A stretch of DNA of 24,000 nt from Tepidisphaeraceae bacterium (GCA_050010915.1 JBEKKC010000053.1:404-24403), one strand, 5' to 3'; counted from the stretch's first letter, positions 1,532 to 17,668 are shown. Notes: generated by a model from the letters alone, not told the origin. Numbers and translations: made by a program.

Positions 1532-1532
1532 T

Positions 1533-1642
1533 AAAGATTCACCGCGAAGACGCGAAGGACGCGAAGTTGCGCGAAGAAAAAACAGAATTTGATTTTAACT
1601 TCGCGCAACTTCGCGTCCTTCGCGTCTTCGCGGTAAATCTTT
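1533..1642. repeat. Long inverted repeat (hairpin element A): 44-nt arms, 43/44 complementary, 22-nt A/T-rich loop
   Basis: Left arm 1533-1576 is aaagattcaccgcgaagacgcgaaggacgcgaagttgcgcgaag. Right arm 1599-1642 is cttcgcgcaacttcgcgtccttcgcgtcttcgcggtaaatcttt, its reverse complement with one mismatch. The loop is aaaaaacagaatttgattttaa. CGCGAAG occurs four times in the left arm, at 1543, 1551, 1560 and 1570. The element lies in the 127-nt gap between two same-strand genes. Confidence 0.9.
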
Positions 1643-1658
1643 TCAGTAACGCTCGATC

Positions 1659-2765
1659 ATGAGGATCAATTTCATCCTGACCAACGCGAGCATGTCGGGC
1701 GGGACGCGCGTGATCGCGACGCAGGCGCGCCAGTTGATGGCGCGGGGGCACGAGGTGCGGGCGTTTTCGACCCCTCCACGGCCGCCGGGATTTCGCAAAA
1801 CGGTCAAATCGTTGTTGCGCGGCAGGGGCTGGCCGAAAATCTGGAAGTTAGGCCCGTCATTCTTCGACGGCAGCGGCGTGCCGCACACCGTCCTCCAGAA
1901 ATTCCGCCCCATTTCCAACTCCGATTTGCCCGATGCCGACGTCGTCGTGGCGACGTGGTGGGAGACGGCGCCGTGGGTTTGGCGGCTTGCGCCGTCGAAG
2001 GGGGCCAAGGCCTTCTTCATTCAGCATCACGAAATCTGGAGCGGATACCCCAAGCAGGTGGACGCCGCCTGGCGATTGCCTCTGCGCAAGATCGTGATTT
2101 CACGATGGTTGAAGGAATTGGCGGGGGAAAAGTTCGGCGATCGGGACGTTTCGCTGGTCCCGAACAGCGTGGACATGAACCTATTCAACGCCCCGCCGCG
2201 TGCGCGGCACGAGCGGCCGACCGTGGGATTGCTCTACAATACCATCTGGTTCAAAGGCTGCGACGTGGCGTTGCAGGCAATCGAAATCGCGCGGCGGGAA
2301 ATCCCGGATTTGCAGTTGGTTGTGTTCGGTCAGGAGAGCGTTCGCCGCTGGATGCCGTTGCCGCAAAGTGCGCAATATTTGATCAATCCCCCGCAGGAAA
2401 CGATCCGCGACATTTACGCCAGGTGCGACGTCTGGCTATGCGGCAGCCGGTCCGAAGGATTTCATCTTCCGCCGCTGGAGGCGATGGCCTGCCGATGCCC
2501 CGTCGTTTCCACGCGGGTTGGCGGTCCGATGGATATCATCGAGGAAGGCAAAAACGGGTTTCTGGTTGACGTGGAGGACCACGACGAATTGGCGGAGCGA
2601 TTGGTGCGGGTATTGAAATTATCGGACCAGGGGTGGCGGGCAATGTCCGATGCCGCGTATGCTACCGCCTGCCGATATACATGGCAGGACGCCGCCGCGT
2701 TGATGGAAGAGGCGTTGCTGACGACGATTGAAAGGTCCCGGACCAAGCGGGCGACGGAGGCCTGA
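1659..2765 (+). CDS. Glycosyltransferase family 4 (GT-B fold, group 1)
   Basis: The N-terminus MRINFILTNASMSGGTRVIATQARQLMARGHEV is a typical GT4 N-terminal domain. The C-terminal segment SRSEGFHLPPLEAMACRCPVVSTRVGGPMDIIEEGKNGFLV matches the E-x7-E-type glycos_transf_1 signature. Confidence 0.85.
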   Translation: MRINFILTNASMSGGTRVIATQARQLMARGHEVRAFSTPPRPPGFRKTVKSLLRGRGWPKIWKLGPSFFDGSGVPHTVLQKFRPISNSDLPDADVVVATWWETAPWVWRLAPSKGAKAFFIQHHEIWSGYPKQVDAAWRLPLRKIVISRWLKELAGEKFGDRDVSLVPNSVDMNLFNAPPRARHERPTVGLLYNTIWFKGCDVALQAIEIARREIPDLQLVVFGQESVRRWMPLPQSAQYLINPPQETIRDIYARCDVWLCGSRSEGFHLPPLEAMACRCPVVSTRVGGPMDIIEEGKNGFLVDVEDHDELAERLVRVLKLSDQGWRAMSDAAYATACRYTWQDAAALMEEALLTTIERSRTKRATEA

Positions 2766-2836
2766 AATAGACGTTGGCAAGACCGGGCCGCGCACCGCCG
2801 TTTATTGGACCACCGCCGCTCGTTGGAGTCGCAAGA

Positions 2837-4237
2837 ATGCTTGGGATTCAAGGCAATGCCTTCGCGGCGCTGGCGCTGTTCGGGTACATCCCGTTCGCGT
2901 TCCTGTTGTTCGCCGTTCTTCCTCCGCGCAAGGCGGTCATTTATGACTTCCTGGTGGCGTGGCTGTTCCTGCCGATGTCGCATTTGCCGCTGCACGGCTT
3001 CACGGATTTCAACAAGATGTCGGCGGCATGCGTGGGCACGCTGCTGGCGACGTGCGTCTTCGATCTGGATACGGTCCTGTCGTTCCGTCCGAAACTCCGG
3101 GACATCCCGATGCTGGTCTGGTGCCTGTGTCCCTATGTCTCCTCCTACTTCAACGGGCACAGCACTTACGACGGCGTTTCGGCGGTCGTGTACCAGACCA
3201 CAACCTGGGGATTGCCGTACTTCATCGGGCGGATTTACTTCAACGACCTGAAGGGGCTGCGTGAACTGGCGATCGGGATCGTGGTCGGGGGGATGCTGTA
3301 CCTTCCGTTCGTCTGGTTCGAGTTGCGTATGAGCCCGCAGCTTCACCGGATTGTTTACGGATACATGCAATATGAATTCGCCCAGTCCACGCGCTACGGC
3401 GGTTACAGGCCGATGGTGTTCATGCAGCACGGGCTTGCGGTGGCGATGTGGTTGGTAACCACCGCCATGACGGCATTCTGGCTTTGGCGATGCAAAGTCG
3501 TGGACAAGCTGTTGGGCATTCCGATGTGGTTGGTCTGCCTGTTGCTGGTGGGAACGGCGGCGTGGGACCACTCGATCGGCGCCGCGGCGCTGATGGTGGT
3601 TGGATTGGCGGTGCTCTGGCTGACGGGAATCACCCGATCAAGCGTTTGGATCGTCGCTTTGACGCTGATCCCCCCTGTCTGGATGGTCGTTCGGACCACG
3701 GGTTTTTGGAACGGACACGACCTGGTCCAGTTCATCCAACAATATGACAAGCGGGCCGCCGGGTCGCTTTCCGTGCGCCTTCACAGCGAGCGTGCCCTGA
3801 CCGACCGGGCCATGGAGCATCCGATCTACGGCTGGACCGGCTGGCACCTCTACGAAGGCCGGGAAGTAACCGAAAACCGCGCCGTTCCCGACCAGATGTG
3901 GATCATCGCCTTCGGAAAATTCGGCCTGATCGGGTTGATTTCGATGACCACCACGTTGTTGTTGCCCGTGCTGGTTCTGGCATGGCGAATTCCCGTGCGA
4001 TACTGGCAACACCCGGGCGCCGCGCCGGCGGCGGCGCTGGCGATGCTGCTCACCCTCCACATGTGCGACATGCTGTTTAACGCCATGGTCAACCCGATCT
4101 TCATCCTGTGCGCCGGCGGGGTGACGGGGCTGAGCTTCTCGCTCCGCGGGTCGTCCCAGCAGGCGCCCGCCCGGCCTATGCTCATGAACGCGCCGCCGCA
4201 TCCGGTGCCGATGGGTCCGAGCGCCGCATCGGCTTGA
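2837..4237 (+). CDS. Polytopic membrane protein, O-antigen ligase/polymerase-like (Wzy_C family: WaaL / Wzy / O-oligosaccharyltransferase type)
   Basis: ORF track 2774..4237. The preferred start is ATG 2837, preceded by GGAG at 2825-2828. There are about 10-12 hydrophobic segments. A late large loop (SVRLHSERALTDRAMEHPIYGWTGW...) is followed by IIAFGKFGLIGL, which resembles the Wzy_C loop plus following helix. Which subfamily it belongs to cannot be decided by eye. Confidence 0.6.
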   Translation: MLGIQGNAFAALALFGYIPFAFLLFAVLPPRKAVIYDFLVAWLFLPMSHLPLHGFTDFNKMSAACVGTLLATCVFDLDTVLSFRPKLRDIPMLVWCLCPYVSSYFNGHSTYDGVSAVVYQTTTWGLPYFIGRIYFNDLKGLRELAIGIVVGGMLYLPFVWFELRMSPQLHRIVYGYMQYEFAQSTRYGGYRPMVFMQHGLAVAMWLVTTAMTAFWLWRCKVVDKLLGIPMWLVCLLLVGTAAWDHSIGAAALMVVGLAVLWLTGITRSSVWIVALTLIPPVWMVVRTTGFWNGHDLVQFIQQYDKRAAGSLSVRLHSERALTDRAMEHPIYGWTGWHLYEGREVTENRAVPDQMWIIAFGKFGLIGLISMTTTLLLPVLVLAWRIPVRYWQHPGAAPAAALAMLLTLHMCDMLFNAMVNPIFILCAGGVTGLSFSLRGSSQQAPARPMLMNAPPHPVPMGPSAASA

Positions 4238-4259
4238 AACGCCCCACGGAAATCCGCCC

Positions 4260-5531
4260 GTGTATCTGGTTCCCATTCAAGTTCCGATCTATCTGGACGG
4301 CGACCGCAAGCTGGTCACGACCGAATGGCTCCGATCGCTGGAACTGTTGCGTGACAGCTTCGGCGGACGGTTCGGGCAAATCGCCGTGGCGGCGCCAAGT
4401 TTGCCGGCAAAGAGCGCATCGGTCGAGCAAACGCTGGTGGAAGTGCCGCAAAACGCCGACGGGCTCGAGTTCTTCCCCAGCTTCGACAAGCGATGCCGCG
4501 CTCGGCGATTCTGGTTCCACGATCGCGCCCGATGGCAATCGGATCTTGTCGCCCTAACCGGGCGCGCCGAGGTCGTTCACGCGGGGGTTGACGACGTGTA
4601 TCGTCCCATCGCGTTCGAGGGGTTCCGCATCGGATTGCGTTTCGGCAAGCCGACGGTATTCGTCCAGGACACCGACAACGTGGTGCAGCAGCGCCAGCTT
4701 GTCGCCGGCCAAGGGCCGGCCCTGCGCGCCAAGGTCGGCGCTTACACGTGGATCTATGAGCGGATGTGCCGATGGGGCGTGGCGCGGGCGGACTTGTCGC
4801 TGCTCAAAGGCTCGGCCCTGATTCGCCGCTACGGCGCCTACGCCAAAAACGCAAAGGAATTTCATGATACGTCGTTTTCCGCCGCGGACATCGTCGCGCG
4901 GGACGAACTGGAACGGAGATTGGCAACGCTGAGCCAGCCGCGGCCGCTGCGCCTGGTCTACTGCGGGCGGCTCACGGGACGCAAGGGCGTGGATTGGAGT
5001 TTGCGCATTTTGGCCCGCGGGATCGCGTTGGGCGCATCCGTGGAATTCGACGTGATCGGGGATGGAACGGAGCGCCAGGGACTCGAGTCGCTGGCCCAGT
5101 CCGCCGGAATCGGGCAGCGCGTCCGGTTCCTCGGATCGTTGCCGTACGACGCGGCGCTGCTCAAACGGCTGGCGGGCTATGATGGAATGCTGTTCACGCC
5201 CACGGCCGAGGATACGCCGCGGATGATTTTCGACGGCTACGCGGCCGGGTTGCCGTTGGTGGCGTTCGATATCGGCTATGTTCGGGAACGACTTGAGCAG
5301 GAACACGCCACATTTTTGATGCCGCGCGAGCGAATCGAGGAATCGGCCGCGGGCCTGGCGAGACTTTGCCGGAATCCCGGACAATTGGCGGAGCTTTCCC
5401 GTTCGGCGCGGGTTGCGGCGGAATACCACAGCGCGGAAAATTGGTATCGACGACGTGCCGAATGGACGATTGAAGCTGTTGAGAGACATGCCCGTGCCAG
5501 GGGCACGGCCGCCGTAGGAAGAGCCGCATGA
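4260..5531 (+). CDS. Glycosyltransferase, GT-B fold (group 1-like)
   Basis: GTG start at 4260. The C-terminal half (LRLVYCGRLTGRKGVDWSLRILA...VEFDVIGDGTERQGLESLAQSAGIGQRVRFLGSLPYD...MLFTPTAEDTPRMIFDGYAAGLPLVAFD) has the usual GT1/GT4 arrangement. The stop overlaps the next start (ATGA at 5528-5531). Confidence 0.7.
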   Translation: MYLVPIQVPIYLDGDRKLVTTEWLRSLELLRDSFGGRFGQIAVAAPSLPAKSASVEQTLVEVPQNADGLEFFPSFDKRCRARRFWFHDRARWQSDLVALTGRAEVVHAGVDDVYRPIAFEGFRIGLRFGKPTVFVQDTDNVVQQRQLVAGQGPALRAKVGAYTWIYERMCRWGVARADLSLLKGSALIRRYGAYAKNAKEFHDTSFSAADIVARDELERRLATLSQPRPLRLVYCGRLTGRKGVDWSLRILARGIALGASVEFDVIGDGTERQGLESLAQSAGIGQRVRFLGSLPYDAALLKRLAGYDGMLFTPTAEDTPRMIFDGYAAGLPLVAFDIGYVRERLEQEHATFLMPRERIEESAAGLARLCRNPGQLAELSRSARVAAEYHSAENWYRRRAEWTIEAVERHARARGTAAVGRAA

Positions 5532-6538
5532 ATTTGCTGGTTATCATCGTCAATTATCGGACGCCCAAGCTGACGCTGGATTGTCTGGCGTCGCTGGCGC
5601 CGCAGGTCGACGACGGGCTGCAAGCGCACGTCATCGTCGTGGACAACGCGTCGGGCGACAATTCCGTGGACTGCCTGAGGCAGGCCATCGCCAAAAATGA
5701 CTGGGGAAACTGGGCAACCGTGATGCCCGCCAAGGCAAACCTCGGATTTGCCGGGGGCAACAATCTGGCTTTGGATAAGCTCCTGGACCATCCCGAAGCG
5801 CGGTACGTCCTGCTGCTGAACAGCGACACGATCGTCGGCGAAGGCGTATTGCGGCATTGCTATGAAAAGATGGCCGCCAATCCCTCCATCGGGATCATGA
5901 GTTGCCTGCTGCTGAATCCCGACCACAGTGTGCAGAACGCCGCGCGTCGGTTGCCCACGCCATGGCGGATGGCGGCGATCAGCTTTGGGCTGCCGTGGAT
6001 TTGGCCCAGGGGATTTGCCTGGGCGGACCTGGACGATCCCGGTTGGGACCGCCGAACCGAATCCCGCGAGGTGGAGTGGGTGGGCGGCGCGTTCATGTTC
6101 ATCCGGCGAAAAGTGATCGACAAGCTCGGCGGGCTGGATACGCGGTTTTTCTTCTACGGCGAGGACGTCGAATTCTGCCGCCGGGCCAGGAAACACGACT
6201 GGATCATCTGGTACGACCCCGCGGTTTCGGTGGTCCACGTTGCCGGAGCGTCCAGCGATCCGAGCCGCCTCGATCCCAAGGAACGCAATGCGTTGAAATG
6301 GCAGGCGAGATATCTGATGCAGCGGCGCTGCTACGGGTTGGCCGCGGAGATCCTTCTGCGCGCGGTGGATATCGCCAGCTTTGGACTGCGGTTCTTGAAG
6401 CTGCTGTTTATGCGGCGCAGCCATTCACCGGAGTTCGCGGCGCAGAAGGACGTGCTGACCATGCTGCTGCATTGGCCGGCGGCAGGCGAAGCCTCCGTCG
6501 CGGCAGGCGAAGCCTCGGCGGCGGCAAACAAGAGGTGA
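5528..6538 (+). CDS. Glycosyltransferase family 2
   Basis: The sequence contains MNLLVIIVNYRTPKLTLDCLASL...VIVVDNASGDNSV...NLGFAGGNNLAL...LLLNSDTIV and GAFMFIRRKVIDKLGGLDTRFFFYGEDVEFCRRA. This is the classic GT2 (rhamnosyltransferase-like) motif series. Confidence 0.85.
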   Translation: MNLLVIIVNYRTPKLTLDCLASLAPQVDDGLQAHVIVVDNASGDNSVDCLRQAIAKNDWGNWATVMPAKANLGFAGGNNLALDKLLDHPEARYVLLLNSDTIVGEGVLRHCYEKMAANPSIGIMSCLLLNPDHSVQNAARRLPTPWRMAAISFGLPWIWPRGFAWADLDDPGWDRRTESREVEWVGGAFMFIRRKVIDKLGGLDTRFFFYGEDVEFCRRARKHDWIIWYDPAVSVVHVAGASSDPSRLDPKERNALKWQARYLMQRRCYGLAAEILLRAVDIASFGLRFLKLLFMRRSHSPEFAAQKDVLTMLLHWPAAGEASVAAGEASAAANKR

Positions 6539-6544
6539 CCACTC

Positions 6545-7681
6545 ATGCCGCGACGACTCCGCGTCGCCTTTGCCCTGCCGGGCCTGCACAGGGTCGTGCG
6601 CGGGGCGGAGACGGCCTTCGAGCAGATCGCACGGCATCTGGCGCGCCTGGGGCATCAAGTCACTGTTTTCGGATCCGGCTTGCCCAGGGCCGGCGAGCCT
6701 TATCGCTTTTCCCACGTGCCCTGCGTTCCCCGAGAAAGGTTCGAGAATTGGCCTAAATTCCCGTTTCTCCGCTCCCATTATGCCTGGGAGGAACTGACGT
6801 TTGCGCCGGGACTGCTGCGCCAATTCCAAGCCCGCGATTTCGACGTATCCGTCGCCTGCTCTTATCCGTATTCGAACTGGATTCTGCGCCGCCACGGAGG
6901 CTCCGCCTGCCGCAAGCCGGTGAAACACGTCTTCGTCACGCAGAACGGCGATTGGATGGTGCGGTCGAACGACGCGGAATACCGGCTCTTCGGCTGCGAC
7001 GGTTTGGTCTGCACGAACGGGCAGTATTTTGAGCGGCATAAGGATCGATTCCGCTGCGCCCTGATCCCCAACGGCGTGGAGCCGGACGTTTTCAAGCCGG
7101 GCGAGGGCGACCGATCCGCATACGGTTTGCCCGCCGACGGGCCGGTGGCGCTGATGGTCAGCGCGCTCATTCCCTCGAAGCGAGTCGTCGAAGGCGTGCG
7201 CGCCGTGGCCAAAGTGCCCGGAATATTTCTGGTCATCGCGGGCGACGGCCAATGCCGCGACGACGTGGACCGCGAAGGCCGCCGCCTCATGGCGGGAAGA
7301 TATCGGCGATTGCAATTGCCTCGTGAACGGATGCCCGGGCTGTACCGTTGCGCCGACGTGTTCCTTCACATGAGCCGCGAGGAACCCTCCGCCAATGCAT
7401 ATTTGGAAGCGTTGGCGACGGGCTTGCCGGTGGTGGCGCACGATTGGGAGGTGACGCGCTGGACGCTGGAGGAGACCGGCGTTTTGGTGGACACGGCCGA
7501 TCTGGCCGCGGTCGCCAACGGCATTTGGCGCGCGATCCCCCGCCGCGAAAGCGCTGACGTCGCGGCCCGCCGGGCGCTGGTCCAGCGCCGGTTCGCCTGG
7601 TCGGTGTTGGCGCCGAAGTACGCGGAGTTCTTTTTCGAGTTGCTTGACGCGGACCCGCGCGGAGCGGGGTGTTCGCAATGA
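6545..7681 (+). CDS. Glycosyltransferase family 4 (GT-B)
   Basis: The N-terminus is RLRVAFALPGLHRVVRGAETAFEQIARHLARLGHQVTVFGSG. The C-terminal segment ADVFLHMSREEPSANAYLEALATGLPVVAHDWEVTRWTLEETGVLVD is a glycos_transf_1-type motif. The 1.3-kb antisense ORF is Arg-rich shadow. Confidence 0.8.
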   Translation: MPRRLRVAFALPGLHRVVRGAETAFEQIARHLARLGHQVTVFGSGLPRAGEPYRFSHVPCVPRERFENWPKFPFLRSHYAWEELTFAPGLLRQFQARDFDVSVACSYPYSNWILRRHGGSACRKPVKHVFVTQNGDWMVRSNDAEYRLFGCDGLVCTNGQYFERHKDRFRCALIPNGVEPDVFKPGEGDRSAYGLPADGPVALMVSALIPSKRVVEGVRAVAKVPGIFLVIAGDGQCRDDVDREGRRLMAGRYRRLQLPRERMPGLYRCADVFLHMSREEPSANAYLEALATGLPVVAHDWEVTRWTLEETGVLVDTADLAAVANGIWRAIPRRESADVAARRALVQRRFAWSVLAPKYAEFFFELLDADPRGAGCSQ

Positions 7682-7718
7682 CCGCACCCGCCGGATATCC
7701 TCTTTAAAGCACCCGGGC

Positions 7719-8921
7719 ATGCCGCACTTCTTCTACATTCCGTTTTTGTTCGCGATCGGAGCGTGCGTTGGAAGCTTTTTGAACGTGGTGGTGTATCGAA
7801 TGCCGCGGGGGATGTCGCTGATCAGGCCGCCATCGCGCTGCCCCGAATGCGAAACGCCCCTGGCGTGGTATGACAACGTTCCCGTTTTCGGGTGGATTTA
7901 CCTGCGTGGAAAGTGCCGGTATTGCCGCAAGCCGATTTCGCCGCGCTATCCGATTGTCGAGGCGGTCACCGGCTGTTTGTTCGTCTTCTATTACATCATG
8001 TTTTTCATTTTGCACTTCGGGCCCACGGGGGAAATGAGCTGGCCGATTTACGGGTTGTACACGATGCTCATCAGCGGGCTGCTGGCGGCCAGCGTGATCG
8101 ACGCGGAGTTGTTCATCATCCCCGCGGGAATCCCCTGGTGGATCGCGGCCGGCGGGATCATCGTGCATGCCGTGGCCGATCAGCCGGGATCGGCCGGTTC
8201 TCTGATGCAGTGGCCATCGGCGTTGGCGCTGTGCGGCGGATCGGCGATTGGGCTGGCCATCAGCGTGGCGATGCTCCAATTGCGGATTTTGCCCCTGAGC
8301 TTTCCGACGGGAGATTTGCTGGAAGTGGAACGGGCGGAGTTGGAAGAGAAGGCCAGGAAGGCGGCCGATGCGGGCGAGCAAGGCCCGGACGTTCCGCCGG
8401 AATTCACCGCCGCGGAGATTCGCCGGGAGATTCGCAAGGAGATGTTGTTTCTGATGCCCCCGCTGGTTCTGGGGGGAGTCTCCGTGCTGCTGCACCTGCA
8501 CGCGCCGGCCGTGCGCCAGATGTGGTACGCCGCCGCCAGGATCGACTGGCTCAACGCGGGAATGGGATCGCTGTTGGGCGGTATGGTCGGCGCGTTCGTG
8601 GTGTGGCTGACTCGGATTCTCGGCTCCTACGTCATGGGGAAAGAAGCCATGGGATTGGGAGACATGCACCTGATGTTCGGCATCGGGGCGGTGCTCGGCG
8701 GCTCAGCCGCAACGATCACCTTCTTCATCGCTCCCTTCGCCGCCATCGCCGTCGGAATTTATCTGCTCATCGCCCATTCGCGCCGCCAGCTTCCATTCGG
8801 TCCCTATTTGAGTTTGGCGGCGGGCTTCGTCATGCTATTTTATCCCCCGATCGCCGCGTACCTGCAGCCCGGATTGCAAGCCATGATCGCCCTGATTCGC
8901 CAGATGTTGCCGGGCACTTAA
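7719..8921 (+). CDS. Prepilin (type IV leader) peptidase, A24 family (PilD/GspO type), unusually long (~400 aa)
   Basis: ORF track 7644..8921, with preferred start ATG 7719 (MPHFFYIPFLFAIGACVGSFLNVVVYRMP). The Cys4 N-terminal domain is CPECETPLAWYDNVPVFGWIYLRGKCRYCRKPISPRYPIVE. The first catalytic-type Asp lies in SVIDAELFIIP (codon 8100-8102). The second lies in GLGDMHLMFGIG (codon 8661-8663). Confidence 0.85.
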   Translation: MPHFFYIPFLFAIGACVGSFLNVVVYRMPRGMSLIRPPSRCPECETPLAWYDNVPVFGWIYLRGKCRYCRKPISPRYPIVEAVTGCLFVFYYIMFFILHFGPTGEMSWPIYGLYTMLISGLLAASVIDAELFIIPAGIPWWIAAGGIIVHAVADQPGSAGSLMQWPSALALCGGSAIGLAISVAMLQLRILPLSFPTGDLLEVERAELEEKARKAADAGEQGPDVPPEFTAAEIRREIRKEMLFLMPPLVLGGVSVLLHLHAPAVRQMWYAAARIDWLNAGMGSLLGGMVGAFVVWLTRILGSYVMGKEAMGLGDMHLMFGIGAVLGGSAATITFFIAPFAAIAVGIYLLIAHSRRQLPFGPYLSLAAGFVMLFYPPIAAYLQPGLQAMIALIRQMLPGT

Positions 8922-8935
8922 CCTGCGAGGATCTT

Positions 8936-9295
8936 ATGGAAAACCTTTGGCTCAAGATCAAAATCTGGACCAAGATCACGATCTTCCTGGCTGTCGTGGC
9001 CTACCTGCTGATGTTCACCTACAACAACTGGGATGAGGAACTCACCATCTGGGTTTTTTTCGGCCATACGTTTCACCACGTCTCGGCGCTGGCGGCGATG
9101 CTCATCGTGCTTCTCGGCGGCGTCCTGGGCACCTTTCTGGTGCGGATGGCATATCATGCGGTGAGGCAGATCCGCGAACTCAAACAAAAAAACGCAACCG
9201 CCAAGATGCACAAGGACGTCGCGGACATCAAGGCGAAGGCCGCGATGCTGCAAACCAAGCCGCAAACCCAATCGGATACGAGCGCCTCGCCGTGA
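8936..9295 (+). CDS. Small two-TM membrane protein with a C-terminal basic/coiled-coil tail (LapA/DUF1049-like architecture)
   Basis: In-frame ATG 8936 inside track ORF 7892..9295, 14 nt after the peptidase stop. The product is MENLWLKIKIWTKITIFLAVVAYLLMF...ALAAMLIVLLGGVLGTFLVRMAYHAVRQIRELKQKN. Two hydrophobic helices are followed by a Lys-rich tail. The family assignment rests on architecture only. Confidence 0.5.
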   Translation: MENLWLKIKIWTKITIFLAVVAYLLMFTYNNWDEELTIWVFFGHTFHHVSALAAMLIVLLGGVLGTFLVRMAYHAVRQIRELKQKNATAKMHKDVADIKAKAAMLQTKPQTQSDTSASP

Positions 9296-9306: not shown

Positions 9307-9362
9307 GAAACTCGAAATTCGAAACTCGAATGACGAATCAAATGCGAAATTCGAATTTCGGC
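9307..9362. repeat. Low-complexity palindromic element B (period-7 TCGAAAN units)
   Basis: The sequence is gaaactcgaaattcgaaactcgaatgacgaatcaaatgcgaaattcgaatttcgg. Units are tcgaaat, tcgaaac, tcgaatg, acgaatc ... cgaaat, tcgaatt. cgaaattcgaa (9313-9323) pairs with ttcgaatttcg (9350-9360). cgaaattcgaatttcg (9345-9360) is a perfect 16-nt palindrome. The element lies between the small membrane protein gene and hisH. Confidence 0.8.
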
Positions 9363-9379
9363 ATGCTATACTCCACCCC

Positions 9380-9994
9380 ATGTCCATCGCGATCGTCGAT
9401 TTCGGAATGGCCAATCTGCGTTCGGTGCAAAAGGCTTTTGCGCAGGTCGGGGCGGAGGCGAAGATCATTTCCCGGCCCGAAGAGATCGACGCGGCCGACA
9501 AACTGGTGCTGCCCGGCGTCGGGGCATTCAAGGATGCCGTCGCCACGCTCCGCGAAAGAAAACTCGCCGAGGCGATCGTCCGGCACATCGAAAAGGGAAA
9601 ACTGTTCCTGGGCATTTGTTTGGGACTACAGATGCTGTTCGACATCGGATACGAGGACGGCGAGCACCGGGGCCTGGCGGTCCTCCGCGGAAAATGCGTG
9701 CGATTTGACGTGGATACGACCCTGGGATTGAAAGTCCCGCACATGGGCTGGAACCAGCTCATCGTCCGCAATCCCTCGCCCCTGCTGACGGATTTGGCGC
9801 CGGGATGCGGCGTATATTTCGTGCACGGCTATCACGTCGTTCCGGACGACCCATCGGTGATCGCCACCGAAACCGACTACGGCCGCCCGTTCGTCAGCAG
9901 CATTCGCCGTGAAAACATCATGGCCACGCAATTCCACCCTGAAAAGAGCCAGAAGGCCGGGCTGAAAATTCTGGCGAATTTCGCGGGAATGTGA
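9380..9994 (+). CDS. hisH: Imidazole glycerol phosphate synthase, glutamine amidotransferase subunit
   Basis: MSIAIVDFGMANLRSVQKAF...LVLPGVGAFKDAV...FLGICLGLQMLF (nucleophile Cys)...VPHMGWNQL...YFVHGYH...ATQFHPEKSQKAGLKILANF. This is a full-length class I GATase HisH pattern. Confidence 0.92.
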   Translation: MSIAIVDFGMANLRSVQKAFAQVGAEAKIISRPEEIDAADKLVLPGVGAFKDAVATLRERKLAEAIVRHIEKGKLFLGICLGLQMLFDIGYEDGEHRGLAVLRGKCVRFDVDTTLGLKVPHMGWNQLIVRNPSPLLTDLAPGCGVYFVHGYHVVPDDPSVIATETDYGRPFVSSIRRENIMATQFHPEKSQKAGLKILANFAGM

Positions 9995-10028
9995 CGGGCA
10001 CGAAACCATTCCGAGAGGATGGCGAGAT

Positions 10029-11504: not shown

Positions 11505-11522
11505 CGGGCCCTTCCGTGATTT

Positions 11523-11951
11523 TCATGTCGCCAGGCGCGAATGGTAGAGCATGAAATAGATGATCACCCCCGTCACCGAAACGTACAGCCAGATGCAGAA
11601 CGTCGGAATGGCGATCCGCCGATGGTTGATCCAATCGCGGCGATAGGCTCGGAGAAGAGTCAGGTAAATCATCGGAAGCATCACCATCGCTAAAAACAAA
11701 TGGGGGAAGAGAATCGCCAGGTAGGTGTATCGCAGCCAATGCGGGGCATGGGAATGGACGGTCGTGTGCACGCCGTGAAGATAGTGATTGGCGAGATAGC
11801 AGACCAGGAATGCAGTGGAGACGGCGGTGGCGGTGACCATGGTGAATCCGTGGGCTCGCCAGCGGCCGGTCTTGATGAAGAAGAAGCCCAGGCAAAGCAG
11901 GATGCAACTGGCGGCGTTGAGCGTGGCGTCGACCGCGGGCAGGACGGTCAT
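11523..11951 (-). CDS. DUF420 family membrane protein (often associated with cytochrome oxidase/copper clusters)
   Basis: The 142-aa product has four hydrophobic helices, with VDATLNAASCILLCLGFFFIKTGRWRAH and YLAILFPHLFLAMVMLPMIYLTLLRA typical of DUF420. Its start overlaps the SCO1 stop by 4 nt (ATGA on the minus strand, 11948-11951). Confidence 0.8.
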   Translation of the reverse strand: MTVLPAVDATLNAASCILLCLGFFFIKTGRWRAHGFTMVTATAVSTAFLVCYLANHYLHGVHTTVHSHAPHWLRYTYLAILFPHLFLAMVMLPMIYLTLLRAYRRDWINHRRIAIPTFCIWLYVSVTGVIIYFMLYHSRLAT

Positions 11952-12637
11952 TTTCCGGCTCCGGTCGGATGCGCGCTGAGCATTTCGGCGTCATGAACGA
12001 GGGCGTCCATCCGCTGGGGGACGAAGGAATCGTAATAGCCGCGGAGTTTTCCCTGGGCGTCGATCAGGACGAAATGCTCATCGTGCTGAATGGGCGTGTT
12101 GCCGACGGCGGGAGAGAAGCCGAGTTTCATGGCGCGGATGACGCGCTCCTGGGTTTTTTCGTCGCCAGTCAGGAAAATCCAGCGGTTGGGTTGCGCGTGA
12201 TATTTGGCGGCATATTCTTTCAGGACGGGTGGGGTATCGTGGGCCGGATCGACGGAGAAGGAAACGAGCAACACGTCCGCGGGCAATCGGTCCTGCAATT
12301 CGGACATGTGTGCCGACATCGTGGGGCACAGGGATGCGCAAGTGGTGAAGATGAAATCGGCGATCCAGGGATGGCCAAGGAGTTGGGCGTTGGTGGCTGG
12401 GTTGCCGTACTGATCGGTGAGAGTGAAGGATGGGACGGGATCGAGAATCGGCGGCGGGGAGGACGGCGTATCCGTGGACGGAACGTAGGTAAAGCCTGCG
12501 GCTCCGGAGGCAAAGCCTGCCGCTTGGGAGTTGGGGTTTGAGTTCACCGGCAGGGTTTTCATGGCAACAACGCCGACCATGCCGCCCACGGCGACGATCC
12601 AGAGAATGACGGTGATGATCTTTTGAGGTTTGCTCAT
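11948..12637 (-). CDS. SCO1/SenC family copper chaperone (thioredoxin fold)
   Basis: ORF track 11948..12787. The preferred start is ATG at 12637 (MSKPQKIITVILWIVAVGGMVG, a membrane anchor). FTLTDQYGNPATNAQLLGHPWIADFIFTTCASLCP carries the CxxxC motif. VSFSVDPAHDTPPVLKEYA...HDEHFVLIDAQGKLRGYY carries the conserved His. Confidence 0.85.
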   Translation of the reverse strand: MSKPQKIITVILWIVAVGGMVGVVAMKTLPVNSNPNSQAAGFASGAAGFTYVPSTDTPSSPPPILDPVPSFTLTDQYGNPATNAQLLGHPWIADFIFTTCASLCPTMSAHMSELQDRLPADVLLVSFSVDPAHDTPPVLKEYAAKYHAQPNRWIFLTGDEKTQERVIRAMKLGFSPAVGNTPIQHDEHFVLIDAQGKLRGYYDSFVPQRMDALVHDAEMLSAHPTGAGK

Positions 12638-12644
12638 AAAAGGG

Positions 12645-13457
12645 CTATTGCAAATCCGCCGCCACGCGCCGGCCGGCCATGATGCTCGAAGCCAGAAACA
12701 TGGCCGCGGCGAACGCGAGACTGATGCCAAGACAAACAGACCACGACGGAAGCCGAAGGTTAGTGGAGTTGGTCCAGTAAAGCGCACGGCGCAGGGCGGA
12801 CACGCCGTAGGTGAGGGGATTGACGCTCATCAGCCAGCGCATGGCGCCGTGGGCGCCGTCGGCGGGGAACATCGCCCCGGACAGGAACCACATGGGGATG
12901 AGAAAGAGATTCATGATGACGTGAAAGCCCTGGGTGGAACTCATGCGCCAGGCGATGCAAAACCCCAGCCCGGCCAGCGCGAAGCTGACGATGAACGTCA
13001 CGGCGACGGCGGCGAGGAATGAGATCGGGCCAAGTTGGATCCCGACCAGGGGGGCCAGGAGCAGAAACAGGACTCCTTGCGCGGTTGCCAGGATTGTTCC
13101 GCCGAGCACCTTGCCGAGGACGATCGCCATGCGCGAGACGGGAGCGACGAGTACGGATTGGAGAAATCCCTCGCGGCGGTCCTCGATGACGGAGATTTCC
13201 GAAAAGATGGCGGTGAAAAGGAGGATCATGACAAGGGTGCCGGGAAAGAAATATTCGATGAAATTGCCGCCGCCGGGCATATCGGAGCGGAAGCTGTGCC
13301 CCATGCCGGCGCCGATGACGATCCAGAAGAGGATCGGCGTCGCCAGGGCGCCGATAATCCGGCTGCGCTGGCGGACGAAGCGGATAAGCTCGCGCCAGCA
13401 GAGCGAAACGGCGGGCAGAAAAAGAGACGAAGAGATCGAGGAAGAATCGGGGGTCAT
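12645..13457 (-). CDS. ABC-2 type transporter permease
   Basis: The 270-aa product has six predicted hydrophobic segments. WRELIRFVRQRSRIIGALATPILFWIVIGAGMG is a typical ABC-2 N-terminal motif. No cognate ATPase gene is adjacent in the window. Confidence 0.75.
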   Translation of the reverse strand: MTPDSSSISSSLFLPAVSLCWRELIRFVRQRSRIIGALATPILFWIVIGAGMGHSFRSDMPGGGNFIEYFFPGTLVMILLFTAIFSEISVIEDRREGFLQSVLVAPVSRMAIVLGKVLGGTILATAQGVLFLLLAPLVGIQLGPISFLAAVAVTFIVSFALAGLGFCIAWRMSSTQGFHVIMNLFLIPMWFLSGAMFPADGAHGAMRWLMSVNPLTYGVSALRRALYWTNSTNLRLPSWSVCLGISLAFAAAMFLASSIMAGRRVAADLQ

Positions 13458-13478
13458 GAAGTTTTGAGTTCGACTATT

Positions 13479-14333
13479 CTATGCGGAATGCCGCTTGCCA
13501 ACAATGGCAAGAAAACCCGCGGCGGCGCGGTCGGCATCGTGGAGAAGGGCAAAGGCCATTCGTTTGCCCGTGCGCGGATGATCGAATGCGAGCTCGATGG
13601 CGGCGAGCATCAGGCCGTTTCGGTGCGGTTTTCCGCCGTATTGGCCGTCGCCGAGGATTGGAGAGCCGGATTGGGCCAGGTGAACGCGAATCTGATGCTT
13701 GCGGCCGGTGTGGAGGGTGACGCGAAGCAGGGCCAAATCGCCGCGGCGATTTTCCACGGCGAATTCGGTGACGGCCCGCTGGCCGCGCCCGGGGACGCGA
13801 GTGGAATGGACCGAGCCGTCGGCGCGTTCGACCAGGAAAGATTCGATTCGCCCGGCGGATTTAGGCGGCGGAGAGACGACGGCGTGATAGACGCGCGCAA
13901 CGGTGTGATAAAAGAATTGGCGTTTGAGGGAATCGTAGGCCCGATTGTTTTTGGAAAAGACGAGCAATCCCGATGCGTCGCGATCGAGACGATGAATCGG
14001 GCCCAGGCGCGCGGGCGGATCGGTCAGGCTGAGATATTGGCGCAGGGCGGCGAGGGCGGTGGGCCGGGGTTCGCGGGGAACGGTGCTGGTGAGCAATCCG
14101 GCGGGTTTGTCGATCACGAGAATGTCTCGATCTTCGTGGATGATAGGAAAGGGCGGGCGGGGAAGCGCCTTCCTCGGCGAATTCACCGCGAGATGGTCGT
14201 CGGCGTTCACCAATTGATCGAGCCTGGCCGCGGTGATGCCGTTGATGAGCACGCGGCCGTCATGCACCATGCGCTTGAGCGTTTGGCGCTTGGCGGCGGG
14301 AAATCTCTTGGCAAGGAGATCGAGCAGCTTCAT
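13479..14333 (-). CDS. RluA-family pseudouridine synthase with an N-terminal S4-like domain
   Basis: Motifs include IIHEDRDILVIDKPAGLLT and GPIHRLDRDASGLLVFSKN (catalytic Asp motif HRLDxxxSG). HTGRKHQIRVHLAQSGSPILGDGQYGG is also present. The start overlaps the upstream hydrolase stop by 4 nt. Confidence 0.85.
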   Translation of the reverse strand: MKLLDLLAKRFPAAKRQTLKRMVHDGRVLINGITAARLDQLVNADDHLAVNSPRKALPRPPFPIIHEDRDILVIDKPAGLLTSTVPREPRPTALAALRQYLSLTDPPARLGPIHRLDRDASGLLVFSKNNRAYDSLKRQFFYHTVARVYHAVVSPPPKSAGRIESFLVERADGSVHSTRVPGRGQRAVTEFAVENRRGDLALLRVTLHTGRKHQIRVHLAQSGSPILGDGQYGGKPHRNGLMLAAIELAFDHPRTGKRMAFALLHDADRAAAGFLAIVGKRHSA

Positions 14334-15589
14334 AGCATGGGAACGGCGGTGTTGAGGAAATGCAGGGCGCGGTTGGCCACGCGCCGGTCGCCGGTGGCCT
14401 GGTCATTGGTTAAATCCTCCAGCCAGAGATAGCTTTTGGGTGCGTTGGCGGCGTCGAAGAGGCTTTGGCCACGGTCAAAGGTGATGACGGAATCGCGCTG
14501 GCCGCTGATAAAAAGAATCGGGCGTGGCGAGACGGCGGCAGCGTCGGCGGCGGGAGAGAAATGGCACAAATCCGCGCCGGTCTGGACGCAGGCCAGCGGA
14601 ACGGCGACGGGCACGATGAACCATTGCAGGGGCGGCGGAAACGAAACCCTGGCGGCAGAGGCGGCGAATTGGTCGAATCGGTCGTAGCATCCAATGACGG
14701 CCAGTGCGTCGAGCGCGCGGCCTTGATTGGAGGGATCGGCGGCGGCGGCGAGAAGCGCCGCGCCGCCGGTGTCCACGCCGATGGCCACGATGCGCCGGCT
14801 TTCCATGGGGTGATTTTGCCGAAGCCAGCGCACGGCTCCCAGGACATCCCGACGTTCACGGTCGCCGAAGGTGACGAGTTGTCCTCCGCTTTGGCCGTGG
14901 GCGCGAAAATCAAAGGTGAGGACATTGTATCCGTCATCGAGGAATCGGCTTGCCAGGGCGAGATAGCTGGACTTCCCGCCGCGCGAACCGGGGCAGATCA
15001 GCAGGGTCTTTCGGCCCCAACGAGGATTGGGGATATCTCCGGGCAAGGGCGCCGGGGCGGCCGTCCAGAACCCGGCGATGAGCAGGCCGTCGGTCGATTC
15101 AAACCATACGCGGGTTGCGCCGGCGTCCAACCAGGCGGATTCATCTTTCTGAACCGTGTTTGGCCGGTAGGTGGCGGCAGCGGCGATCATGTAGGGCAAG
15201 CCGATGACGAACAAAAGAAGCACGCGAAACACCTGGGCGGCGGATCGGCGTTGCCGCCGCTTCCAGGCGCCGGCGCCGGTGGCGAACACCAGACGCGCCA
15301 GGCGATCGAGCAGGAAATCCAGACCCTTGAGAATGCAGATCAGCCCGGCCGCCCAGTAGCAGGTGAGCGCCATTTGCAGCGGCGGGACGATCCCGCCGAG
15401 CCAGAGGCCGTAAATCATCGAGGCGGCGATGCCCAGCAAAAGCGACGTGGCGATGGCGACGGTGACCTTGGGCCAGACTTGGGCCGCCGGAATCCCACGC
15501 CGGTGGGCAACGGCGAACAAGGCGATCAGCACGACCGGTGGCAGGGCGAAGTAGAGCGACATCAGGAAAATGTGCGCGGATTGCAGCAT
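14330..15589 (-). CDS. Membrane-anchored alpha/beta-fold hydrolase
   Basis: ORF track 14330..15733. The first 48 codons translate hairpin element C, so ATG 15589 (MLQSAHIFLMSLYF) is preferred, with 15562 as an alternative. About 150 aa of hydrophobic helices are followed by TRVWFESTDGLLIAGFW...LLICPGSRGGKSSYLALASRFLDDGYNVLTFDFRAHGQSGG...IVAIGVDTGGAALL...ISGQRDSVI. This is an alpha/beta hydrolase layout, and the nucleophile-elbow position carries Asp (codon 14771-14773). Confidence 0.7.
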   Translation of the reverse strand: MLQSAHIFLMSLYFALPPVVLIALFAVAHRRGIPAAQVWPKVTVAIATSLLLGIAASMIYGLWLGGIVPPLQMALTCYWAAGLICILKGLDFLLDRLARLVFATGAGAWKRRQRRSAAQVFRVLLLFVIGLPYMIAAAATYRPNTVQKDESAWLDAGATRVWFESTDGLLIAGFWTAAPAPLPGDIPNPRWGRKTLLICPGSRGGKSSYLALASRFLDDGYNVLTFDFRAHGQSGGQLVTFGDRERRDVLGAVRWLRQNHPMESRRIVAIGVDTGGAALLAAAADPSNQGRALDALAVIGCYDRFDQFAASAARVSFPPPLQWFIVPVAVPLACVQTGADLCHFSPAADAAAVSPRPILFISGQRDSVITFDRGQSLFDAANAPKSYLWLEDLTNDQATGDRRVANRALHFLNTAVPML

Positions 15590-15629
15590 GCGGATGGCGA
15601 TTGGACGATAGTTATAACATGAAGGATGG

Positions 15630-15731
15630 GGGAAGCCCGAAATCCGAAATCCGAATGACCCAATAAAGAAAGTTTCGGACTTCGTCATTCGGATTTGATT
15701 CGTCATTCGGATTTCGGATTTCGGGCTTCCC
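15630..15731. repeat. Long perfect inverted repeat (hairpin element C): 30-bp arms, 42-nt spacer, period-7 CCGAAAT units
   Basis: Left arm 15631-15659 is ggaagcccgaaatccgaaatccgaatgac. Right arm 15702-15730 is gtcattcggatttcggatttcgggcttcc, its exact reverse complement. One more flanking G:C pair (15630/15731) extends the stem. The spacer holds a second direct copy of gtcattcggattt (15684-15696 versus 15702-15714). The element lies in the divergent region between the hydrolase gene (-) and rsmH (+). Confidence 0.92.
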
Positions 15732-15765
15732 ATGCTGGTTTCGGCATCACTCTGACAGGAAGTCC

Positions 15766-16701
15766 ATGGATCTCCCTCCCACCGGCCACGAACCCGTCAT
15801 GCTGCGAGAGGTTCTGGAGCTTCTCGCGCCGTCCTCCGGACAAACCGTGGTGGATTGCACCGTCGGGCGGGGCGGGCATGCGCTGGCCATCGGGCAACGG
15901 CTGGGAAGCGATGGTCTGCTGATCGGCCTGGATGCCGATCCGAGGAACCTGGAGTTTGCCGCCGGGCAACTCAAGAGCTTGCCCTGCCGGGTCCGGCTGT
16001 TTCATGCGAATTTCGCGAAACTGTCGAGTGTGATGGAGGAAGTGGGAAATCCGGCGGTCGGCGGCATCCTGGCGGACCTGGGGGTCAGCACGAATCAGCT
16101 TTTTGATCCGGCCTATGGATTGAGCTTTGACAGGGCGATGCCGCTGGATATGCGTCTGGACCCGGAATTGCCTGAAAATGCGGCGGACCTCGTCAAGAAA
16201 TTGCCTGAAGAATCGCTGGCCAACGTCCTATATCAATTGGCGCAGGAGCGTTATTCGCGGCAAATTGCGAGAAAGATTGTCGAAACGCGGAAGATATCGC
16301 CGATCAGAGACACGGAAGCATTGGCCGAGCTTGTTCGCTCGGCAATACCGCGCCGGGGTGGACCGCCGGAGCGAATTGATCCGGCCACGAGGACGTTCCT
16401 GGCCTTGCGGATGGCGGTCAACCGGGAGATGGAAAATCTCCGCGAGTTGCTGAAGCAAGGTCCCGCGGCGCTGGGGACCGGGGGCCGGATGGCAGTGATC
16501 AGCTTCCAGTCGATGGAGGATCGGTCGGTGAAACAAGCGTTTCGGTCGTTGGAGCAGACCGGGGTAATGAAGGTGATGACGAAAAGGCCTCTCTCGCCCT
16601 GCGACGAAGAATGCGCCCGTAATCCGCGGGCACGGTCGGCGAAAATGCGTGTTGGGATTCGAGTTGCGGGTTGCGAGTTGCGAGTTGCGAGTTCAAGCTG
16701 A
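15766..16701 (+). CDS. rsmH: 16S rRNA (cytosine1402-N4)-methyltransferase
   Basis: HEPVMLREVLELL...VVDCTVGRGGHALAI...GLDADPRNL...ILADLGVSTNQLFDPAYGLSF...PLDMRLD...ERYSRQIARKIVETR...ATRTFLALRMAVNREMENL...GGRMAVISFQSMEDRSVKQAF...NPRARSAKMRV. This is a full MraW/RsmH pattern. The last ~12 codons (VAGCELRVASSS) and the stop lie inside hairpin element D. Confidence 0.92.
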   Translation: MDLPPTGHEPVMLREVLELLAPSSGQTVVDCTVGRGGHALAIGQRLGSDGLLIGLDADPRNLEFAAGQLKSLPCRVRLFHANFAKLSSVMEEVGNPAVGGILADLGVSTNQLFDPAYGLSFDRAMPLDMRLDPELPENAADLVKKLPEESLANVLYQLAQERYSRQIARKIVETRKISPIRDTEALAELVRSAIPRRGGPPERIDPATRTFLALRMAVNREMENLRELLKQGPAALGTGGRMAVISFQSMEDRSVKQAFRSLEQTGVMKVMTKRPLSPCDEECARNPRARSAKMRVGIRVAGCELRVASSS

Positions 16702-16740
16702 GTTCCAACTCGCAACTCGCAACGCGCAACTCGCAACTTC
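16661..16740. repeat. Heptamer-based inverted repeat (hairpin element D): (GTTGCGA)n arm facing (TCGCAAC)n arm
   Basis: Left arm 16661-16693 is gagttgcgggttgcgagttgcgagttgcgagtt. Right arm 16707-16740 is aactcgcaactcgcaacgcgcaactcgcaacttc. About 30 of 32 arm positions are complementary, with two internal mismatches. The 13-nt loop caagctgagttcc contains the rsmH TGA stop. The right arm ends 4 nt before the GGAGA Shine-Dalgarno-like motif (16745-16749) of the next gene. Confidence 0.9.
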
Positions 16741-16754
16741 TCTTGGAGATCGTC

Positions 16755-17660: not shown

Positions 17661-17668
17661 AAGCGTCC

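Follow-up and report, generated by a model that had tools for sequence, protein, structure and literature searches.

Repeat-built hairpins between genes of a Tepidisphaeraceae bacterium as probable gene-less copies of widespread hairpin cassettes

The locus and its four elements

The stretch of DNA considered here (GCA_050010915.1, JBEKKC010000053.1:404-24403; 24,000 nucleotides, hereafter the window) belongs to an uncultured Tepidisphaeraceae bacterium (Phycisphaerae, Planctomycetota) from peat, and its best genome matches are peat-bog ("SPRUCE") Tepidisphaeraceae metagenome-assembled genomes, with an RsmH identity of 88%. Four elements built of short tandem repeats, designated A to D, lie between protein-coding genes of the window; A, B and D are placed between same-strand genes and C between divergent genes. 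The elements and the genes next to them are listed below.

629..1531, plus strand: gene called by codon usage, with no Pfam match; A begins 2 nt after its stop
1533..1642: element A, a solo hairpin with arms at 1533-1576 and 1599-1642 and a 22-nt loop
1659..2765, plus strand: family 4 glycosyltransferase (GT4), the start codon of which lies 16 nt after the end of A; a glycosyltransferase cluster follows A
7719-8921: prepilin peptidase, preceding the small open reading frame (ORF) upstream of B
8936..9295, plus strand: small ORF, its stop 11 nt before B
9307..9360, plus strand: element B, a half element in which eight degenerate heptamers (CGAAAYY...), the core CGAATGACGAATCAAAT among them, are followed by a short palindrome
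9380..9994, plus strand: hisH, followed by a GH28 gene
14330..15589, minus strand: alpha/beta hydrolase with its real start at 15589, at the end of a minus-strand block
15630..15731: element C, a solo hairpin with arms at 15630-15659 and 15702-15731
15766..16701, plus strand: rsmH, preceded by C and followed by D
16660..16738: element D, a solo hairpin of (GTTGCGA)n / (TCGCAAC)n with arms at 16662-16693 and 16707-16738
16755..17660, plus strand: LysM-domain protein; D ends 16 nt before its start

A preliminary description, made from the sequence of the window alone, had reported inverted repeats of unusual length and perfection at these four sites, and for A, C and D the observation is confirmed and its reading largely correct. 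A repeat finder run on the window recovers the same near-perfect hairpins of 30-44 bp, in which 43/44 (A), 30/30 (C) and 30/32 (D) positions pair, and A can be drawn with wider arms (1533-1582 and 1593-1642) that are 94% complementary over 50 nt. These stems are far beyond chance expectation, as simulating the window 200 times with a first-order Markov model gave a longest stem of 22 pairs, against the observed 43, 30 and 30, and stems of at least 16 pairs arose at 0.04 per simulated sequence. Relative to shuffled sequence, the predicted RNA folds are exceptionally stable for A (-85.6 kcal/mol, z = -16.8), C (z = -8.0 on the plus and -9.4 on the minus strand) and D (z = -8.9). Element B had been described as an 11-bp stem combined with a 16-nt perfect palindrome, and this part did not hold: its inverted repeat (9313-9331 versus 9342-9360) covers 19 nt at 84%, and a z of -1.5 against shuffled sequence gives no significant hairpin.

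The arms are themselves tandem repeats, as the same description had proposed. Tandem Repeats Finder reports period 7 in C (CCGAAAT), in D (CGAGTTG, 4.9 copies) and in B (8.1 degenerate copies with 68% matches), and a period of 9-10 in A, where the unit is CGCGAAG plus 1-3 nt; each arm of A consists of GATTYACC followed by four CGCGAAG units spaced 1-3 nt apart. The 42-nt "loop" of C contains further heptamers together with a minus-strand copy of the core at 15693-15709, an exact 17-mer that is also present in B at 9327-9343 on the plus strand. Across A to D the loops measure 13-42 nt and contain no ORF.

Among 10 independently assembled metagenome contigs encoding the same RsmH protein, D is covered in all 10 and C is complete in 8, and both elements are base-for-base identical in every contig that reaches them. 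C and D are therefore neither assembly artefacts nor hypervariable, and their unit number is stable in the population. Two of the metagenome contigs (L003 and L009; loci collected for comparison carry L numbers) start within or just after C, which suggests that these repeats break short-read assemblies.

Two familiar explanations for such repeats were rejected. A CRISPR array is incompatible with units that abut or sit 1-3 nt apart and so lack regularly spaced repeats with unique spacers, in line with what had been noted before. An intrinsic terminator is likewise a poor match: no T-run follows the stems of B, C or D, as previously stated for three of the four elements, the only run at A (TAAATCTTTTC) is itself stem sequence, and C, lying between divergent genes, cannot be a plain terminator. 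A scan for consensus terminators and promoters was uninformative for A to D. Rfam at gathering thresholds returned nothing for the window, in which no rRNA was found, and its E-value mode gave only sub-threshold chance matches to microRNA hairpins.

The hairpins also distort gene calls, and here the earlier observations stood throughout. D supplies the 3' end of rsmH, with the stop codon (16699-16701) inside its loop and the last ~13 codons (...RVAGCELRVASSS, then stop) contributed by its left arm; the Pfam match of RsmH ends at residue 296 of 311. The ORFs at 1426..1608 and 1539..1751 on the minus strand are hairpin artefacts of A, the minus-strand ORF 14330..15733 is artificially extended through C (public gene calls start at 15589), and the start of the plus-strand ORF 16671..17660 is an artefact of D (public gene calls start at 16755).

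Dispersed families of repeat-built arms

Further copies of the elements, for which the preliminary description had proposed a search, proved to be numerous. A scan of metagenome contigs with the 17-mer common to B and C found it at least 145 times in at least 120 DNA stretches, and nearly all of the listed occurrences lie in a heptamer array (CGAAATT, CGAAACT, CGAATGA and others) that is followed by an inverted copy. Among the matches listed, at least 73 hairpins contain the core, at least 66 of them in distinct flanks, with a median arm of 34 nt and a median element length of ~116 nt. B and C do have a common descent, as had been suggested from this 17-mer, which marks a very large dispersed family.

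Other arm families are dispersed in the same way. A-type arms (GATTYACC with CGCGAAG units) recur in L020, L057, L099, L122, L123 and L139; an arm of A is identical at 38/44 positions to the arm of a gene-bearing cassette at another locus, and the arms of A align column by column with arms flanking GxxExxY genes in L139, L182 and L177 and with a solo hairpin in L122. D-type hairpins with the unit GTTGCAA are found at unrelated sites in L104 and L109, and L030 has a GTTGCAA array. The arms hence form sequence families over many unrelated intergenic sites and genomes, and the opinion that A to D are not plain copies of a single MITE (a miniature transposable element with inverted repeats) was borne out.

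Some other palindromic structures were encountered among these loci. L019 carries two opposite-orientation copies (3790-3945 and 20375-20517) of an element ~150 nt long, in which AACCACGGAGGCACGGAGACACGGAGG arms border a conserved interior of ~90 nt that is non-coding, and elements of similar size and build with interiors of ~110 nt and ~82 nt are present in L013 (1232-1403, immediately upstream of hisH) and in L128. A 109-nt perfect palindrome that encloses a fragment of the B/C core (L070, 1567-1810) was set aside as a probable assembly artefact, since it is located at a contig end.

The placement of such hairpins was surveyed in the window and in 417 kb from 25 related Tepidisphaerales loci, with a hairpin scan for repeat-built arms of at least 16 nt and a home-made codon-usage gene caller. 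This gave 29 repeat-armed hairpins (~1 per 15 kb), none of which lies inside a gene, in agreement with the earlier remark that no gene is interrupted, and period 7 was found in 17 of the 20 that could be scored. The elements are intergenic and usually begin a few bases past the upstream stop codon: in 73 same-strand gaps the median hairpin start is 6 nt past the stop, and the median distance from its end to the next start is 37 nt. Gaps of all types contain the B/C family equally often (52/317 same-strand, 11/77 convergent and 14/75 divergent gaps), whereas the other repeat-armed hairpins of the related loci occupy 22 of 342 same-strand or convergent gaps and none of 60 divergent ones, for which the chance probability was estimated at ~0.03. 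Stem mismatches in same-strand gaps comprise 43 sense G.U, 63 antisense G.U and 74 other mismatches, with no sense bias (p = 0.06, in the opposite direction); in the absence of a sense-strand G.U preference, the stems provide no sequence evidence for selection on an RNA fold.

Gene-bearing cassettes with the same arms

In related loci, repeat-built arms 270-520 nt apart enclose one small gene of either of two types, encoding a GxxExxY / PD-(D/E)XK nuclease or a four-helix-bundle protein annotated as "23S rRNA intervening-sequence protein". In 1.37 Mb of loci, inverted arms built of repeats closely border all six genes belonging to the two families; among the other genes, taken as a control, 11 of 1074 (1.0%) have such flanks. 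Independent cassette loci were fetched by protein homology search with one query member per family, which returned at least ~8000 significant relatives for each, many of them named Tepidisphaeraceae, Planctomycetes or Phycisphaerales. The six genes and the independent loci are as follows.

L139: GxxExxY (TIGR04256, PF13366); perfect 22-nt arms GATTTACCGCGAAGACGCGAAG, which are those of A
L122: GxxExxY; TTTTTAACCGCGGAG... arms
L028: four-helix-bundle (TIGR02436, PF05635); arms of other units (GGATGAA)
L075, first gene (L075a): four-helix-bundle (TIGR02436, PF05635); B/C-type arms
L075, second gene (L075b): four-helix-bundle (TIGR02436, PF05635); GAAATTCGAAT arms
L093: four-helix-bundle (TIGR02436, PF05635); B/C-type arms including the exact 17-mer
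L182, independent: GxxExxY; 32/32 arms TTTACCGCGAAGTGCGCGAAGAACGCGAAGAA
L177, independent: GxxExxY; A-type arms
L200 and L201, independent: four-helix-bundle; 26/26 arms AATGACGAATGACGAATTCCGAATGA
L203 and L197, independent: four-helix-bundle; both fit the pattern

Arm type tracks gene type. Arms of the form ACC-(CRCRRAG)n accompany GxxExxY genes, and AATGAC/GAAAT units accompany most of the four-helix-bundle genes; PF05635 genes with B/C-type arms were found in L075, L093, L200 and L203. Gene-bearing and gene-less versions of the elements thus share the same arms.

In L197 (879-2592) the four-helix-bundle cassette lies between separate ORFs for a flavoprotein (CoaC-like, PF02441) and a DFP protein (CoaB-like, PF04127). 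CoaC-like and CoaB-like domains are usually fused in one coaBC gene, and the cassette may have split it.

The same architecture is found outside the Planctomycetota, on sequenced plasmids that carry four-helix-bundle or GxxExxY genes and were examined for flanking repeats.

Nostoc punctiforme pNPUN02 and N. flagelliforme: four-helix-bundle; (CAATTCG)4.7 and its perfect inverse, 33/33
Planktothrix plasmid: four-helix-bundle; CCCCAAT and CGTAAAT arrays
Bernardetia plasmid: four-helix-bundle; (TAGTGAT)17
Euhalothece plasmid: four-helix-bundle; (CTGGTCA)13
Chlorohelix plasmid: four-helix-bundle; GGATGAA units
Treponema plasmid: four-helix-bundle; CTCTCCG units
Bacteroides finegoldii, Bernardetia and Gemmatirosa plasmids: GxxExxY; TTCACC-(CRCRGAG)n arms
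Sphingomonas plasmid: GxxExxY; left arm only

On plasmids of Anabaena cylindrica (L205), Planktothrix (L207) and Pseudanabaena (L214), four-helix-bundle genes with heptamer flanks are placed inside defence loci, the contexts being between cas2 and cas1, between drmD of a DISARM system and pglX of a BREX system, and next to cas1.

Turnover at orthologous sites

Comparison of orthologous intergenic sites, which the preliminary description had recommended, revealed presence, absence and replacement at three positions, upstream of hisH, at the junction of the penicillin-binding protein gene and queA, and downstream of rsmH. The site upstream of hisH holds the half element B in the window, a full element in L012 and L176, an element of another family in L013 and nothing in L015 and L016. 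Relative to its ortholog in L012, B is missing the right arm (~39 nt), and it is a truncated half element rather than a hairpin in its own right. Orthologs of C are present in L011, L012 and L063. At the penicillin-binding protein/queA junction, a 20-nt mini-hairpin in the window corresponds to a 100-nt GTCATTG hairpin in L011. The site downstream of rsmH, where D is located, shows the widest range of states.

Unit GTTGCGA: window, L013, L014 and L021
Unit GCAAGTT: L011 and L012
Unit GTTGCTA: L019
Unit CAGTTGNC: L020
Unit AGGACTG: L022
Units GTCAGTG and GGTTGTG: L027 and L031
CAGAT-type hairpin: L015, L016, L037 and L050
Nothing: L017, L023, L024, L025, L028 and L052

Within each species the variant base is altered in most unit copies and in both arms, a pattern indicating that whole units turned over, or that the element was replaced, rather than single compensatory substitutions. 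Between related species, elements have been gained or lost, some were truncated, and others gave way to another family or were rebuilt on a mutated unit. In L037 (10906-11021) the rsmH-downstream site has a nested arrangement, with a GTCATTT-unit hairpin inside the loop of the CAGAT-type hairpin.

Comparison with known repeats

The closest parallels come from two systems that have been described separately. Heptameric repeats of the cyanobacterial short tandemly repeated repetitive (STRR) type have been known since 1990. They form 7-bp repeat hairpins between cyanobacterial genes (for example hupS/hupL), with function unknown and a role in transcript stability suggested (PMC2670836); according to the reference list of another paper they also occur inside RNase P RNA (PMC7593598), and the P6b stem of the trnL intron is built of 7-nt repeats (PMC4476775). 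Like STRR sequences, the arms of A to D are tandem units of ~7 bp in direct and inverted arrays able to form an intergenic hairpin, and the heptamer arrays on the Nostoc and Planktothrix plasmids stand in inverted pairs around four-helix-bundle genes. They differ in that STRR sequences come from heterocyst-forming cyanobacteria and the window from the Planctomycetota, and the unit sequences are unrelated.

The second parallel is the intervening sequence (IVS) of 23S rRNA genes. In Coxiella this has a 28-bp terminal stem with an ORF for S23p, a four-helix-bundle protein, in the loop, and carries tandem GACAGAT heptamers whose number varies by strain and at the first of which RNase III cuts; it is considered selfish and possibly once mobile, and gene-less IVSs exist in other bacteria (PMC4990558). 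The resemblance to the IVSs of Coxiella and Leptospira lies in the stems (43/44, 30/30 and 30/32 pairs in A, C and D, compared with 28 bp in Coxiella), in the PF05635 ORF enclosed in the loop at the cassette loci, in the existence of gene-less versions and in heptamers at the arm. IVSs, however, occupy helix 25 or 45 of 23S rRNA, from which RNase III excises them, whereas A to D lie between protein-coding genes and the copies in the window have no PF05635 ORF.

Other repeats share fewer features. Intergenic heptamer repeats are known from Xanthomonas (GGGAATC), Nostoc (GGGGAYT) and Beggiatoaceae (TAACTGA) (PMC4692102, PMC4679880), and they too form arrays at the same site in relatives with varying length and sequence, some of them inverted (PMC4692102) and some near start codons (PMC4679880). 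Most of these arrays are direct, and they have been discussed as sequences that form G-quadruplexes or as signals for translation; they are not long perfect hairpins, and a link to cassette genes has not been reported for them. Repetitive extragenic palindromic (REP) sequences are imperfect palindromes, 20-40 bp long and tagged at one end by GTAG or CGTC (PMC3733652). Together with the bacterial interspersed mosaic elements (BIMEs) and REP doublets (REPINs), they resemble the present elements as high-copy extragenic palindromes that mostly follow genes closely, show no target-site duplication and form lineage-specific families (PMC3733652, PMC3116915), but REPs are shorter, tagged and not built of tandem units, and the lone REP-associated tyrosine transposase (RAYT) found in related loci is accompanied by other, GC-rich palindromes. 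With MITEs the elements have in common that short copies lacking a gene exist beside longer ones that carry a gene between the same terminal inverted repeats; they differ in the lack of a detectable target-site duplication, in ends that are not sharp and in enclosed genes that are not recognised transposases.

In the searchable literature, which is limited, no paper was found that connects STRR sequences with four-helix-bundle or GxxExxY genes, the Coxiella paper was the only one returned for a link between S23p or GxxExxY and heptamers, and searches on the arm sequences or on hairpins and terminators in Planctomycetes found no such element in the Planctomycetota. The view that A to D represent an uncharacterised class of non-autonomous palindromic elements can accordingly be kept in part: a non-autonomous, palindromic nature suits elements whose arms flank small genes elsewhere, but in light of STRR sequences and the Coxiella IVS the class is not wholly uncharacterised.

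Interpretation and alternatives

A, B and C are probably solo, gene-less copies of widespread hairpin cassettes, and D has the same build with no gene-bearing counterpart found. A full cassette would consist of an inverted pair of arms, each a short array of ~7-nt units, around one small gene. The arms of A would represent the type ACC-(CGCGAAG + 1-3 nt)n, with a GxxExxY / PD-(D/E)XK nuclease as partner, and those of B and C the type AATGACGAA / TCGAAAT, with an Avd-related four-helix-bundle PF05635 protein as partner. Arms may grow and shrink through replication slippage of the 7-nt unit, and the cassettes would behave as selfish or near-neutral operon passengers and not as regulatory devices of the host. 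When transcribed, duplexes of 30-44 bp may be cut by RNase III, as in the 23S rRNA intervening sequences, and such cutting would part the upstream from the downstream transcript. A structured-RNA role of this kind, as RNase III sites or insulators, had also been put forward in the preliminary description and is plausible by analogy.

Several observations weigh against this interpretation. No cassette gene is present in the window, and the link to genes depends on arm homology with other loci; for the GTTGCGA arms of D, no gene-bearing partner exists among inverted repeats spaced 120-2500 nt in all of the loci. At one GxxExxY locus (L190) the flanking repeats are direct instead of inverted, and the four-helix-bundle plasmid cases of Anabaena cylindrica, Pseudanabaena and Chondrinema (L205, L214, L215) are weaker than the others. 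Neither cassette protein is a recognised transposase, and the cassette proteins match no known defence family in PADLOC. Mobility of the elements is putative: no target-site duplication, for which the preliminary description had proposed a search, is visible in the flanks of 66 B/C-family copies, the ends of the elements in this family are fuzzy, and each exact cassette protein occurs at a single genomic site across samples, so that no recent transposition is seen. RNase III cleavage of the stems is proposed by analogy only. Genes in the related loci were called from codon usage, with the window as training sequence. A function at 3' ends would likewise agree with the close placement after stop codons, and the occupation of the D site by a hairpin in more than 10 related species fits an in-place, possibly useful structure.

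The last two points lead to the main rival, in which the hairpins serve the host at 3' ends, as terminators without a U-tract or as REP-like stabilisers of mRNA, and are kept by selection while drifting through slippage, with small genes landing in hairpins that already exist. As a general account this is unlikely, but for D, and for those families that avoid divergent gaps, it keeps some weight. Hairpins that start a few nucleotides past the upstream stop, a site downstream of rsmH that keeps a hairpin in many species despite full unit turnover, the avoidance of divergent gaps outside the B/C family, a T-rich stretch after the stem of A and the proposed stabilising role of STRR hairpins (PMC2670836) are all in its favour. 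Against these, C and its orthologs are located between divergent genes and divergent gaps hold the B/C family as often as other gaps do, B, C and D have no U-tract, stem mismatches show no sense G.U preference, elements are absent from the same site in close relatives, and identical arms at dozens of unrelated sites require dispersal and not local evolution. This last argument also bears on a purely local origin of each hairpin by microsatellite slippage and strand template switching, as a mutational by-product with neither dispersal nor function. Among long simple repeats, heptamers are the most over-represented in many bacteria, and slippage has been proposed as the cause (Mrazek 2007, as cited in PMC4679880 and PMC4692102), and the unit variant at the D site shifts in most copies and both arms together (GTTGCGA, GCAAGTT, GTTGCTA). 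Yet the exact 17-mer is found with matching neighbour units in at least 120 contigs and at least 66 distinct contexts, an arm of A is shared at most positions with a cassette arm elsewhere, and the same arm type accompanies the same gene family across phyla, which makes a local origin very improbable overall; judged from these sequence matches, it appears largely refuted for A, B and C.

Mobilisation of REP/BIME-type repeats by a RAYT, a possibility raised before, is equally improbable. The elements are indeed dispersed, intergenic, palindromic and free of target-site duplications, and a RAYT-like Y1 transposase is encoded in L065, a locus that also carries a B/C-family element. That RAYT, however, is flanked by unrelated GC-rich palindromes (of the GTGGCAC.GGCGGCCCGCCCGTG type) and not by heptamer hairpins, the elements measure 60-130 nt (54-110 nt for A to D) with arms of 30-50 nt, compared with 20-40 bp for REPs, the arms are built of tandem units, and in place of a GTAG or CGTC tag the ends are GATTYACC in A, GGAAAC or GGGAAGCC in B and C, and CGAGTTG in D. 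One RAYT was found in 1.46 Mb of fragments, which makes for a weak test. Only slightly better placed, and still improbable, is the proposal that the arrays are DNA or RNA sites for a multimeric protein, such as a pentameric four-helix-bundle protein with one unit per subunit, with a regulatory or nucleoid-organising role. Arms typically hold 4-5 units (4 in A, 4.5-4.9 in D, 4.7 in Nostoc), the arm units of GxxExxY cassettes are conserved across phyla (CRCRGAG), which suggests sequence recognition, and B and C adjoin promoter-like motifs. Avd, the accessory protein of diversity-generating retroelements, binds nucleic acid. PF05635 proteins resemble Avd (PMC10053308), and the S23p four-helix-bundle protein is reported to be a homopentamer (PMC4990558). 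Contrary to this proposal, the units of four-helix-bundle cassettes differ completely between families and species, and the elements are dispensable at orthologous sites.

Returning to A, B and C as solo copies of cassettes, a broader and more tentative proposal is that heptamer-armed cassettes form a single, so far undescribed cross-phylum class of selfish elements that includes STRR hairpins, 23S IVSs and the many orphan four-helix-bundle and GxxExxY genes found in Planctomycetota, Bacteroidota, Cyanobacteria and other groups. The enclosed protein, a PD-(D/E)XK nuclease or an Avd-like pentamer, could then act on its own arms, folded as hairpin or cruciform, and so copy the cassette or maintain it in a manner unlike known transposases, and the solo elements A to D would be miniature derivatives. 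This is possible, but we regard it with considerably less confidence.

Other features of the window and related loci

Short motifs accompany two of the elements. A -10-like hexamer (TATACT/TATAGT/TATAAT) lies 7-8 nt before the start of hisH in most of the orthologous loci compared (TATACT at 9367-9372 in the window, 7 nt before the ATG), which suggests a leaderless hisH mRNA with a promoter abutting B. Between the start of the hydrolase gene and the hairpin, the motif CGATAGTTATAAYA (in the window GATAGTTATAACATGA, 15603-15618) is kept in the window, L011, L012, L013, L015, L016, L037 and L050, the remaining spacer around it not being alignable; it may be a promoter or operator.

The cell-division cluster at 15766-20601 is unusual in that no mraZ precedes rsmH and the LysM gene (16755-17660) is placed between rsmH and a weak FtsL-like ORF (17669-17947), with the penicillin-binding protein gene downstream. 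No mur genes follow the transpeptidase gene, queA is convergent, and a gene for an xerC/D-type recombinase comes later. An ordinary hairpin that is not repeat-built (18541-18582, arms CTGAATGGGACGCGACC, 16/17 pairs, 8-nt loop) is found ahead of the penicillin-binding protein gene, in a gap of 368 nt, and a 36-nt tandem repeat (22023-22127, 2.9 copies, 77% matches) coincides with a weak coding signal.

In L065 (47-1378), the RAYT-like Y1_Tnp segment (578-877) is seemingly in frame inside a longer helicase-like ORF, with inverted repeats at 192-258 and 855-932, and GC-rich palindromes like those of this locus (CGTATCACGGGCGTCTCGCCCGTGCG) occur three times in L027.

Significance

One architecture, in which inverted arrays of ~7-nt units enclose a small gene or nothing at all, ties together three puzzles that have been described separately: the STRR heptamers, the intervening sequences that fragment 23S rRNA, and two very large families of small proteins, the four-helix-bundle/S23p/Avd-like and the GxxExxY proteins. 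The association of heptamer-built inverted arms with these two gene families is apparently undescribed, and elements of the STRR-hairpin and IVS-cassette kind are now found in another phylum, the Planctomycetota. If the interpretation is correct, it would give STRR sequences and intervening sequences a testable origin and would predict the nucleic-acid target of both protein families, namely their own arms. For the Planctomycetota, it would identify a common source of gene-calling errors, in the form of false starts, false C-terminal tails and spurious ORFs, and would imply frequent RNase III-type processing sites within the operons of this phylum, in which gene expression has received little study.

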